29,027 nt of DNA from Thermoplasmatota archaeon (GTDB taxonomy: Archaea > Thermoplasmatota > E2 > JACPAO01 > JAHFTW01), in assembly GCA_041622975.1 (NCBI GenBank), contig JBFJXU010000001.1, forward strand, positions 1 through 29,027. Reading direction: 5' to 3'. Position 1 is the stretch's first letter; the number at the start of each line of letters is the position of its first letter. A program made the position numbers and the translations under genes. The notes under the pieces were generated by a model that searched no databases, was not told the DNA's origin, and saw only the letters and a program-made list of their open reading frames with translations. Below, in pieces: positions 1,174 to 29,027 of this stretch.

Positions 1174-1199
1174 ACGGGCGCGACGGGATTCGAACCCGC
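1174..1199 (-). repeat. 26-bp exact direct repeat of the tRNA-Arg 3' end (partner 1274-1299)
   Basis: acgggcgcgacgggattcgaacccgc occurs at 1174-1199 and 1274-1299, exactly 100 bp apart; it covers the T arm, acceptor 3' strand, discriminator and 1 extra nt. Confidence 0.97.
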
Positions 1200-1253
1200 A
1201 GTACCCAGGGCGGCTGGCACCCTGGGGCAGACGGGCCGTCCCCGCCTACGCCC
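1175..1253 (-). ncRNA. Putative tRNA-like (mimic) structure
   Basis: Minus strand folds by hand into a 6-bp acceptor (GGGCGT/GCGCCC), an 8-bp bulged D-like arm, a 6-7-bp anticodon-like arm (CCAGGG/CCCTGG), a 5-nt variable region and an intact T arm. Confidence 0.5.
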
Positions 1254-1274
1254 TCCGGCTGCTGGCGCAGCCTA

Positions 1275-1349
1275 CGGGCGCGACGGGATTCGAACCCGCG
1301 ACGACTGGCTTAGGAGGCCAGAGCCTTATCCAGGCTAGACTACGCGCCC
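1275..1349 (-). tRNA. tRNA-Arg(CCT), 75 nt, no intron, CCA not encoded
   Basis: GGGCGCG acceptor, GTCT/AGGC D stem, CTGGC-CTCCTAA-GCCAG anticodon arm, GCGGG-TTCGAAT-CCCGT T arm, discriminator G. Confidence 0.97.
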
Positions 1350-1423
1350 GAGCGGGCCACTTGAGGGGGGTTCTTGGCCGTGCCGGCCGCCGCCGTTTTC
1401 CAAGGGCATGCCATGGCCGACTC

Positions 1424-27138: not shown

Positions 27139-27283
27139 CAAGTAGACAGCCGCTGGAAGGGGGTTTAAGGATTGATGGTCAACCGTTGTCTGCAACAGGA
27201 GTGAACAAGGCGGATTGAATGCGATTCTCGCCTTATTCGCCTGACCGCAACCAATGAATAGGGCCGCAGCCCAGCGGGATTCG

Positions 27284-28804
27284 ATGCTCCACCCGCGGCG
27301 CGTCGTGGGAGCCATCGGCTCCATCCTCACCTTGTACAGCGCGGCGTTCCTGCTGCCCGCCGTAGTAGCAGTCGCCTACGACGCGCGTGAGACAAACATC
27401 GGGGCCGTGCAGGTTCCGTTGAATGCGCTCATCTTCCTTCTGTGCGCCCTCTTGACATTCATGTTAGGCGCTGTACTGCGCCTATCTGCAGCCAACACCA
27501 ACCCCGAAAACATGGCCGACCGAGAGGCGTACCTCACCGTCGGCATTGGATGGATTGCATTGTGCCTCGTCACAGCAGTCCCATACGTCCTGACAGGCAC
27601 ACTCACCTCACCGGTTGACGCGTTCTTTGAATCCATGAGTGGATTGACTACCACGGGCGCAACCGTGATCGGCGGGCCCTTGGAGGACGTCAGTCCATCC
27701 GTCCACATGTGGCGAGCCTTCACCCAATACATCGGAGGAATGGGCATCATTGTCTTGTCCGTGGCAATCCTAGCCAAGTTGAGTCAGGGAGGCATGCAGA
27801 TGCTACAAGCAGAGGTACCCGGCCCCACCATGAGCCGAGTCGCTCCCCGCGTGGCCCAAACGGCGCGCATCATGTGGGGCGTTTACCTTGCCTTATCCGC
27901 CGTCCTGTTCGCGATCCTCACCGGGATTCTGGCCTTCCGCCACGGCATGAACGTCCCGACCGCAGCGTATGAAGGGCTCCTCCATACATTCACGACCCTT
28001 TCCACGGGTGGTTTCAGCAACCACACCGCTAGCATCGCCTACTTCGATGACCCCCTTATCGAGGGCATCATCATAGGCTTCATCCTGCTAGCCGGGACAA
28101 ATTTCTCACTACTCCTTCTCGCGTCCCACGGAGAATGGAGAACGCTCCTCCGCGACGGCGAATGGCGCCTCTACATGACCAACTTCGTGTTGGTTTCGGG
28201 CGTCATGGCCATCATCCTGACACGGGCCGGCATGGAAGCCATGCAAGCCATCCGTGACGGTGCATTCGTCGTTGCATCCATGATGACGAGTACGGGATTC
28301 GGCACGGCCGACTTCGACCAATGGCCGGACGTGGCACGACTCATCATCGTTTTTGCCATGGTCGCAGGGGGAATGGCAGGCTCCACCGCCGGGGGGCTCA
28401 AGATGGTCCGTGTCCTCTTGTTGTGGAAAATTGTCAGGCGCGAATTCGTACGCATCCGACACCCCCAAGCCATCGTCCCCTTGCGCATTGGCGGCCGCAC
28501 TGTACCCTCCCGCACCATCATGGCCACTGTGGCGTTGTTCTTCTCCTACGTCGCCCTCTGGCTCCTTGGCACCGTCCTGCTCGAGATTGTGGACCCCGCA
28601 TTCGCACGCGTGGAGGATGCCGCCTCGGCGAGCCTGAGCGCTTTGTCCAACGTAGGCCCCGGTCTTGGCGTCGTTGGCCCGACCCAATCCTACGCGGGCT
28701 TGACCATGGCGAGCAAAGTGGTCCTTAGCGCCGAGATGTGGTTCGGCCGACTGGAAATCTTCACCGCCCTGCTCATCTTCCTGCCCGAAACCTGGCGCCA
28801 TTAG
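27284..28804 (+). CDS. trkH: Trk potassium uptake permease TrkH
   Basis: Pore loops FESMSGLTTTGA, STGGFS, STGFG, SNVGPGLG; C-terminal GRLEI; start ATG 27284 (alternative 27254). Confidence 0.93.
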   Translation: MLHPRRVVGAIGSILTLYSAAFLLPAVVAVAYDARETNIGAVQVPLNALIFLLCALLTFMLGAVLRLSAANTNPENMADREAYLTVGIGWIALCLVTAVPYVLTGTLTSPVDAFFESMSGLTTTGATVIGGPLEDVSPSVHMWRAFTQYIGGMGIIVLSVAILAKLSQGGMQMLQAEVPGPTMSRVAPRVAQTARIMWGVYLALSAVLFAILTGILAFRHGMNVPTAAYEGLLHTFTTLSTGGFSNHTASIAYFDDPLIEGIIIGFILLAGTNFSLLLLASHGEWRTLLRDGEWRLYMTNFVLVSGVMAIILTRAGMEAMQAIRDGAFVVASMMTSTGFGTADFDQWPDVARLIIVFAMVAGGMAGSTAGGLKMVRVLLLWKIVRREFVRIRHPQAIVPLRIGGRTVPSRTIMATVALFFSYVALWLLGTVLLEIVDPAFARVEDAASASLSALSNVGPGLGVVGPTQSYAGLTMASKVVLSAEMWFGRLEIFTALLIFLPETWRH

Positions 28805-28847
28805 GGGGAGGATCTCCCTCACTGAACCCCTCGCACGGCTCGCGCTT

Positions 28848-28867
28848 CAGTGCTCCTGGCGGGATTT
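28848..28867 (-). repeat. 20-bp (19/20) direct repeat of the tRNA-Glu 3' end (partner 28976-28995)
   Basis: cagtgctcctgGcgggattt versus cagtgctcctgCcgggattt, 128 bp apart, including 3 nt beyond the discriminator. Confidence 0.9.
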
Positions 28868-28873
28868 TCGAGC

Positions 28874-28976
28874 GTCGTCGCACAGCGACGACCGAGGGGA
28901 GCAGGTCCACAGGACCTGCGACAGAACCCGGGACGGGTTCAAATCCGCCGTAGCGGCGCGTGGCGGTACGCCACGC
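28874..28976. repeat. Cluster of five perfect inverted repeats with 3-nt loops
   Basis: gtcgtcgc-aca-gcgacgac; gcaggtcc-aca-ggacctgc; gaacccg-gga-cgggttc; cgccg-tag-cggcg; gcgtggcg-gta-cgccacgc. Confidence 0.95.
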
Positions 28977-28978
28977 AG

Positions 28979-29027
28979 TGCTCCTGCCGGGATTTGAACC
29001 CGGGTCGCAGGAGTGAGAGTCCTGAAT
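28979..29027 (-). tRNA. tRNA-Glu(CTC), 3' portion (5' end lies beyond the window), CCA not encoded
   Basis: CAGGA-CTCTCAC-TCCTG anticodon arm, CCGGG-TTCAAAT-CCCGG T arm, CAGGAGC-A acceptor end. Confidence 0.92.

Follow-up and report, generated by a model that had tools for sequence, protein, structure and literature searches.

In an uncultured marine Thermoplasmatota archaeon, we found a short non-coding insert, occupied by a run of perfect triloop hairpins, between the tRNA-Glu(CTC) gene and a displaced duplicate of its 3' end. As far as its sequence can tell, the locus is most likely a tRNA att-site footprint with unusual, palindrome-only content. The insert itself is most likely a non-coding scar rather than a proven signal, and any function would be putative at most. 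Our window, by which we mean the whole stretch of DNA that was analysed, is one entire contig of 29,027 nt. It belongs to a metagenome-assembled genome (MAG; G000) of 303 contigs and 2.04 Mb that is 86% complete. The contig end falls inside tRNA-Glu(CTC), so that 49 nt at the 3' side match the tRNA model and the 5' remainder is not covered by the contig; these 49 nt share 98% identity with the complete tRNA-Glu(CTC) genes of relatives. The trkH gene is convergent with tRNA-Glu(CTC), and its stop codon is placed 44 nt ahead of the tRNA-end duplicate. The main features are as follows.

27254 to 28804, forward strand: TrkH-family cation transporter gene (open reading frame; Pfam TrkH, E 2.3e-65).
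28848 to 28867, reverse strand: displaced tRNA-Glu 3'-end copy, attR-like (19/20 versus 28976-28995).
28865 to 28868, forward strand: TTTT run at the junction of duplicate and insert (from the sequence).
28868 to 28975, unstranded: non-coding insert (cassette) of 108 nt between the tRNA-end copies (from the sequence).
28979 to 29027, reverse strand: tRNA-Glu(CTC), 3' 49 nt only (Rfam RF00005, 33.5 bits, model positions 23-71).

The duplicate comprises the T-loop AAAT, the 3' strands of the T-stem and the acceptor, the discriminator, and three trailer bases (CTG). Position 28859 is C in contigs of two sequencing runs (X1 and X3), which makes the duplicate identical to the tRNA end (20/20). The 29-kb contig holds no further copy of this tRNA-Glu core elsewhere, and the coding potential of the insert amounts to short overlapping open reading frames that are unsupported. 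The TTTT at 28865-28868 is the sole T4 run within the intergenic region; it is possible that it serves as an archaeal stop signal for trkH.

The initial annotation had described five back-to-back perfect triloop hairpins with stems of 8, 8, 7, 5, and 8 bp within 103 bp. All five are present at 28874-28976, each with a 3-nt loop, and we list them here with a further hairpin, hp0.

28806 to 28818, unstranded: hp0, a sixth perfect triloop hairpin, 5-bp stem, loop GAT, right after the TrkH stop codon.
28874 to 28892, unstranded: hp1, 8-bp stem, loop ACA (-8.6 kcal/mol with DNA parameters).
28901 to 28919, unstranded: hp2, 8-bp stem, loop ACA.
28924 to 28940, unstranded: hp3, 7-bp stem, loop GGA.
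28946 to 28958, unstranded: hp4, 5-bp stem, loop TAG (4 bp in the predicted fold).
28958 to 28976, unstranded: hp5, 8-bp stem, loop GTA.

The back-to-back arrangement needs some qualification, since G28958 is common to hp4 and hp5 and the two cannot form at full length simultaneously. The one loop that had been left unnamed is TAG, and hp0 is not part of the cassette but of the old chromosomal flank. The 36 pairs in hp1-hp5 are Watson-Crick without exception, G-T pairs being absent, and no similarity in sequence links the five stems. The stem of hp1 can be extended (TCG/CGA) across a 3-nt bulge, and hp5 starts 2 nt past the tRNA discriminator.

The comparisons with shuffled sequence and with the rest of the genome, which had been proposed together with the hairpins, both bore out the cluster. 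Perfect palindromes cover 86 of 109 nt, versus 9.3 +/- 10.1 nt in dinucleotide shuffles (0/500), and the fold z scores are -6.0 (DNA) and -5.3 (RNA, minus strand). Across the 2.04-Mb MAG there are 260 perfect triloop hairpins with stems of at least 7 bp. This locus is the only place in a MAG-wide scan where at least three of them stand within 60-nt gaps of each other; the only other clustering is a single pair of hairpins in the 74-nt tandem repeat that follows tRNA-Gly(TCC). By simple arithmetic from the MAG density (~0.013 hairpins per 103 nt), the four observed would have a chance of roughly 1e-9 per 103-nt window. The hairpin cluster is a real, statistically exceptional, single-locus feature. 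The preference for triloops is weak as a family signature (9/32 in the MAG minus this locus versus a 19% background, p=0.14; 9/27 in relatives, p=0.055).

The structural properties that had been attributed to the hairpins fared less well. Unusual stability of GNA-type triloops had been invoked, and two of the five loops are G-N-A, whereas the two ACA loops are unable to form the sheared G-A pair. We rejected the class of N4 promoter-type GNA mini-hairpins, for which only GGA and GTA qualify and no stem or context is shared. The proposed analogies with N4 promoters and with DGR target sites come down to a common loop length, as the stems share nothing. A cruciform had also been suggested; for its extrusion, arms of 5-8 bp are short, which speaks against it.

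Read support for the locus consists of Logan contigs only (per-run k=31 assemblies) at a depth of 3-5x and from one study; all runs containing the stretch are marine metagenomes of that study, with no RNA run among them. The contig of run X1 covers 28734-28929 with one difference, that of run X3 covers 28814-28959 with four differences, and that of run X4 covers 28952-29027 and beyond with none. Where validation at read level had been asked for, the support is thus at the level of contigs: those of three libraries reproduce the pieces, none spans the whole locus, and contiguity over 28929-28976 comes from overlapping contigs together with the MAG. We note that the X3 contig leaves the window sequence exactly at 28814, in the middle of hp0, and continues leftward with 26 differing, palindrome-containing bases. 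Possibly, this divergence represents strain variation at the locus.

That the hairpins are fold-back chimeras of library preparation or assembly near a contig end appears extremely improbable. The position of the feature (50-160 nt from the contig end), the depth of 3-5x, the lack of a contig spanning everything, and the origin of all runs in one study that is probably the source of the MAG would fit such an artefact. However, pieces of the locus recur with 0-4 differences in separate per-run assemblies of three libraries, which argues against an assembler artefact; the 19-nt palindromes are below the assembly word length (k=31), and recurrence is unexpected for random chimeras.

The repeat itself has the form of an attL/attR pair, in which a segment from the T-loop to the 3' end of the tRNA occurs twice in the same orientation, and integrases of related genomes use this core as well. 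In three relatives (G004, G038, and G040), tRNA-Glu(CTC) has a convergent tyrosine-integrase gene at its 3' end, as have tRNA-Arg(CCT) in G036 and tRNA-Arg(TCG) in G031. The distance between integrase and tRNA in these five relatives is 40-130 nt (about 130 nt in G038). The integrase of G004 (L092; G004:C200 109-1192) matches Pfam Phage_integrase with an E value of 5.8e-34 and has a SAM-like N-domain. The tRNA-adjoining tyrosine recombinases (L092, L085, L089, L087, and L086) are 323-350 aa long and combine a SAM-like N-domain with the catalytic domain. The SAM-like N-domain is also typical of XerA, and some of these recombinases could be chromosomal (XerA) and not genes of mobile elements.

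Further traces of the same core were found in relatives. On G038:C71, a 17-nt duplicate of the tRNA-Glu 3' end stands alone, without a tRNA and bounded at the same point of the T-loop, and the intact tRNA-Glu(CTC) of G038, with its integrase, is on a different contig. In G025, a segment of 640 nt separates tRNA-Glu from a 22-nt repeat, and an integrase lies another 1 kb away. In addition, a loose contig end in run X3 is the integrase-tRNA spacer of G004, which indicates that such integrase elements live in the same samples. Because the segment from the T-loop to the 3' end that is repeated in our window is the core duplicated beside integrases in relatives, the 20-nt repeat is best read as an attL/attR-type footprint. 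The tRNA-integration setting that the initial annotation had envisaged is therefore upheld by related archaea, where the same core is duplicated and an integrase stands beside the intact tRNA. These observations agree with the rule that gene fragments of tRNAs generally derive from integration (PMC9897764).

Against a footprint stands the content of the repeat interval, which includes no integrase or other gene: 108 non-coding nt lie between the copies. The sequence on the other side of the tRNA falls outside the contig. We found no match to Phage_integrase (PF00589) in the 86%-complete MAG, from which a XerA candidate is also absent; the missing gene of this family is probably on missing contigs. 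The same MAG yielded no Y1 transposase (PF01797), Cas1 (PF01867), or TnpB. An integrase footprint alone also predicts neither palindromes nor inverted copies of the target, and both occur inside the insert, where three stretches match the tRNA.

28915 to 28922, forward strand: anticodon-stem 3' strand and variable region of the tRNA, copied in inverted orientation (8/8).
28924 to 28932: direct copy of a T-arm segment, which includes the left arm of hp3 (from sequence comparison).
28934 to 28946, forward strand: inverted copy of the tRNA T arm (13/13).

The inverted copies of the variable region and the T arm keep the order that they have in the tRNA. The local alignment of the inverted T arm outscores 1000 of 1000 shuffles, and words of at least 9 nt common to insert and flanks cover 22 nt, versus 1.8 nt in shuffles (1/500). 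The right arm of hp2 continues into the inverted variable-region copy. The left and right arms of hp3 are direct and inverted copies of one T-arm segment, which makes hp3 an exact direct/inverted junction. Pieces of the tRNA thus alternate in orientation (direct at 28848-67, inverted at 28915-46, and direct from 28976 onward). The direct-inverted-direct order with junctions at short inverted repeats, as in template switching or inverted triplication, is therefore present, with copies that are short (8-20 nt). Moreover, hp5 sits in the middle of an imperfect palindrome of 69 nt (28934-29002; 76% in the self-inverse match, E 2e-6), of which the real T arm of the tRNA is a part. The acceptor part of the inverted tRNA copy is not recognisable, and for hp1, hp4, and hp5 no template was detectable in the MAG.

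A stretch followed by three bases and its exact reverse complement, in two cases with use of tRNA arms, is a signature of template switching, and this origin of the palindromes is plausible. Template switching creates perfect stems in a single event (PMC8794818), and direct-inverted-direct copies or inverted triplications arise at short interrupted inverted repeats (PMC4689423). The perfect stems without G-T pairs, the 20/20 repeat, and the absence of the insert from a congener fit a young event. No flank-derived sequence was found in the cassettes at other tRNAs, so a general role of template switching is unsupported.

The same copies could be explained without any recombinase. If a repair polymerase or the replication fork changed strands at the short inverted repeats of the tRNA (T arm, anticodon arm, and trailer hairpin), the 3' region of the tRNA would be triplicated on a small scale in direct, inverted, and direct orientation, with palindromes at the junctions, and would be trimmed later. 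Such a replicative rearrangement would account for the three tRNA-derived copies in alternating orientation, the 69-nt imperfect palindrome centred on hp5, and hp3 as a junction of direct and inverted T arms, and the known inverted triplications are likewise bounded by short interrupted inverted repeats (PMC4689423). However, it does not predict that the repeat boundary coincides with the att core beside the integrases of relatives. The unrecognisable acceptor part of the inverted copy and the other tRNA-end duplicates in the MAG, which lack inverted tRNA pieces, also count against it, and we consider this course of events unlikely.

The insert has no homologue in the 40 relatives searched, same genus included, and the flanks in these genomes were too diverged to be compared for an empty site; neither an ancestral state nor an empty-site allele was recovered. 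Blastn detected no second copy of the insert or of any stem in the MAG, with the exception of the hp2 stem. Its 8-mer arms recur once, as part of a hairpin of 10 bp that lies in the tRNA-Thr(CGT) trailer (MAG contig C71, 4335-4358), for which we estimate a chance expectation of ~0.05 genome-wide. Rfam returned tRNA only at E <= 10, with no match to RtT (RF00391) or other families. Among JGI metagenome contigs, the pattern of flank plus repeat gave 0 matches and the pattern of repeat to repeat gave one, on an unrelated AT-rich contig (L076). On L076 (Ga0066639_10109975, 790-950), a tRNA-Glu-like 3' end is repeated 125 nt downstream around a non-hairpin insert, and ARAGORN found no complete tRNA there. 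In viral contigs, the hp5 19-mer matched four sites within coding DNA of unrelated viruses, which we attribute to chance, and hp1 and hp2 had no match.

Despite this uniqueness in sequence, the layout recurs: an intact tRNA is followed by a GC-rich structured insert of 75-130 nt and then by a copy of the tRNA 3' end. It was found at tRNA-Glu(CTC) in G001, G002, G010, and G023 (and in degenerate form, with an inverted copy, in G011), at tRNA-Arg(CCT) in G013 and G021, and at tRNA-Asn in MAG contig C274. We found no sequence similarity among the inserts of different tRNAs. The narrow size range of the inserts (about 75-130 nt) is odd for random remnants of deletion. One further example lies in our window.

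1274 to 1350, reverse strand: tRNA-Arg(CCT), followed by a GC-rich insert of about 74-75 nt and then by the tRNA-end copy.
1175 to 1200, reverse strand: exact 26-nt copy of the tRNA-Arg(CCT) T arm and acceptor 3' strand.

This insert is not conserved among the 40 relatives. The duplicate at 1175-1200 pairs with the start of its insert better than shuffles do (p=0.0125), in a tRNA-like fold. Mirror forms on the 5' side were detected upstream of three tRNAs in the MAG, where the leader and tRNA positions 1-26 are followed by a hairpin insert of 51-67 nt, tRNA positions ~25-45, and the intact gene.

Contig C194, 1155 to 1400: mirror form at tRNA-Ala(CGC).
Contig C105, 4428 to 4650: mirror form at tRNA-Leu(CAA).
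Contig C226, 2480 to 2681: mirror form at tRNA-Thr(TGT).

These observations bear on whether the insert is a structured RNA trailer under selection, which would shield or define the 3' end of the pre-tRNA, insulate its transcription from the convergent trkH, or be released as an RtT-like small RNA with a tRNA-like 3' end. Trailers in the family are indeed structured: over the 100 nt downstream of tRNAs, z averages -1.5 and lies below -2 in 28-29% of cases, versus 3% of random windows. Hairpins start 0-5 nt past the discriminator at several tRNAs, and tandem hairpin modules trail tRNAs in C98, C178, L062, L064, and L069, some of them ending in a tRNA 3'-end copy. In C178 (2412-2556), modules with a 74-nt unit stand directly behind tRNA-Gly(TCC) and include a degenerate stretch resembling the T arm and acceptor of a tRNA. 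Modules with a unit of ~80 nt stand directly behind tRNA-Glu(TTC) in C98 (1-130). In the tRNA-Arg(CCT) trailer of G021:C182 (L069), the last ~13 tRNA nt occur three times at an 84-nt period, each time after two conserved hairpins. The tRNA-Arg(CCT) trailers of two congeners (L062 in G020 and L064 in G011) have the same order of hairpins. When the two were compared by eye, one stem carries a paired change from G-C to A-T, and in another the apex is replaced in both arms and still pairs perfectly.

The trailer that had been proposed at our locus fits this family trend, but the insert is conserved in 0 of 40 relatives, and this absence, same genus included, leaves selection for structure unsupported. 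A T run follows none of hp1-hp5, and archaeal termination relies on oligo-T, not on hairpins. The lack of G-U pairs and the strict strand symmetry also favour an origin at the DNA level over long selection at the RNA level. Taken together, a selected trailer seems quite unlikely to us.

Another possibility is that the insert is a tiny non-autonomous mobile cassette, which would leave the chromosome as a small circle, possibly of single-stranded DNA, with a folded att-like site and be served by a tRNA-specific recombinase in trans. The layout of core, 108 nt, and core, the inverted copy of the core region within the insert, and the characteristic insert size across genomes would suit such a cassette. 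Cognate integrases occur in related archaea of the same samples. Pairing between duplicate and antisense sequence exceeds chance at two other tRNAs, L017 (p=0.0025) and the tRNA-Arg of our window (combined p=0.003). In contrast, the duplex between duplicate and insert at the tRNA-Glu(CTC) locus is no better than shuffles (p=0.70), despite a predicted cloverleaf or closing-stem fold. No sequence is common to any two inserts, the MAG has no second copy, and neither an empty site, a circle junction, nor a recombinase in the MAG was found, so that we regard the cassette as very doubtful. In a broader version, the ~100-nt hairpin inserts between duplicated tRNA ends, among which ours is the most extreme, would be archaeal mini-cassettes of a class of their own, integrative but without genes. 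These would be moved in trans by the tRNA-Glu/Arg integrases, with the hairpins and the inverted target copy as the recombination site; we give this version little credence.

The explanation that we prefer, at close to even confidence, is an integrase-type footprint around a 108-nt cassette whose palindromes come from fold-back or template-switch copying and which is now a plain tRNA trailer. We infer the following order of events. Tyrosine-integrase-type recombination in the T-loop of tRNA-Glu(CTC) would have provided the new 3' end and left the old one 128 nt downstream. The palindromes would be young inverted micro-duplications, each a stretch of 5-8 nt that recurs after three bases as its reverse complement, and fold-back or template-switch DNA synthesis would have written them. 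In hp2 and hp3 this copying would have built on the inverted variable region and T arm of the tRNA, which would result in a miniature direct-inverted-direct arrangement. The cassette would presently be transcribed as a structured 3' trailer of the tRNA and be cut off by RNase Z, and it would need no sequence-specific function.

Genes for tRNAs are the main landing sites of mobile DNA in archaea. Described footprints are kilobase-sized, whereas here and at several other tRNAs of the family only ~100 nt of hairpins lie between the regenerated and the displaced ends. If the inserts are scars, they would record serial fold-back copying that produces perfect palindromes in one step, partly from the arms of the tRNA itself, a process with, to our knowledge, few records in archaea. 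If the inserts are instead processed RNAs or cassettes, they would represent an undescribed kind of small tRNA-linked element, and folded cassettes would be an archaeal counterpart of the folded-DNA substrates of the integron attC and CTX type. Either way, partial copies and tRNA mimics can mislead tRNA annotation, and the inserts mark integration hot spots in uncultured marine Thermoplasmatota.

Several known element types were considered and rejected. A MITE or IS-derived element is not indicated, as the insert is single-copy, its ends (TCGAGC... and ...CGCCACG) do not form inverted repeats, and the length of the direct repeats varies from 17 to 57 nt among loci. Casposon or Cas1-type integration would be expected to leave a repeat of about 14-15 bp, compared with 20 nt here, and we found no PF01867 match and no terminal inverted repeats. 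An intrinsic terminator was dismissed since none of hp1-hp5 is followed by at least four T on either strand, and the only T4 precedes hp1. Like REP/BIME and REPIN sequences, the hairpins are GC-rich extragenic palindromes clustered after a gene. Those sequences form multi-copy consensus families with RAYT, whereas our stems are unrelated, confined to a single locus, and without a Y1 transposase; with no second copy in the MAG and no PF01797 match, membership was rejected.

RtT (RF00391) comprises structured non-coding units behind E. coli tyrT tRNA genes that end in a copy of the tRNA 3' end, and its function is poorly understood. The layout of a structured trailer unit with a tRNA 3'-end copy is alike, and related archaea have a tandem array (L069, three copies). 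Our locus differs in having one unit only, in belonging to another domain of life, and in showing no sequence or Rfam match, so that membership in RF00391 was rejected (no match even at E <= 10). Integron attC and CTX phage attP(+) are folded single-stranded recombination sites. They resemble our locus in a hairpin-rich segment of ~60-140 nt, flanking core repeats, and an internal inverted copy of the core, but we found no evidence of an integron integrase or Xer, conserved R/L boxes are absent, and at this locus the closing duplex does not exceed chance.

We know of no description, in the literature that we searched, of five template-switch-like events in 103 nt behind an archaeal tRNA. As in our window, described attL/attR duplications at tRNAs consist of a direct repeat of the tRNA 3' segment from the T-loop; they leave an intact tRNA (PMC9897764), of which our contig covers the 3' 49 nt. 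They enclose elements of roughly 9-23 kb or more (PMC9897764), whereas here the repeats enclose 108 non-coding nt with no integrase and with a palindrome run that includes inverted pieces of the target. The described template-switch mutations and ODIRA-type triplications differ in their setting, as they concern eukaryotic RNA genes, kilobase-scale amplicons, and bacterial quasipalindromes. They share with our locus the same signature of a stretch, a short loop, and the reverse complement of that stretch, and the same direct-inverted-direct order (PMC8794818; PMC4689423).
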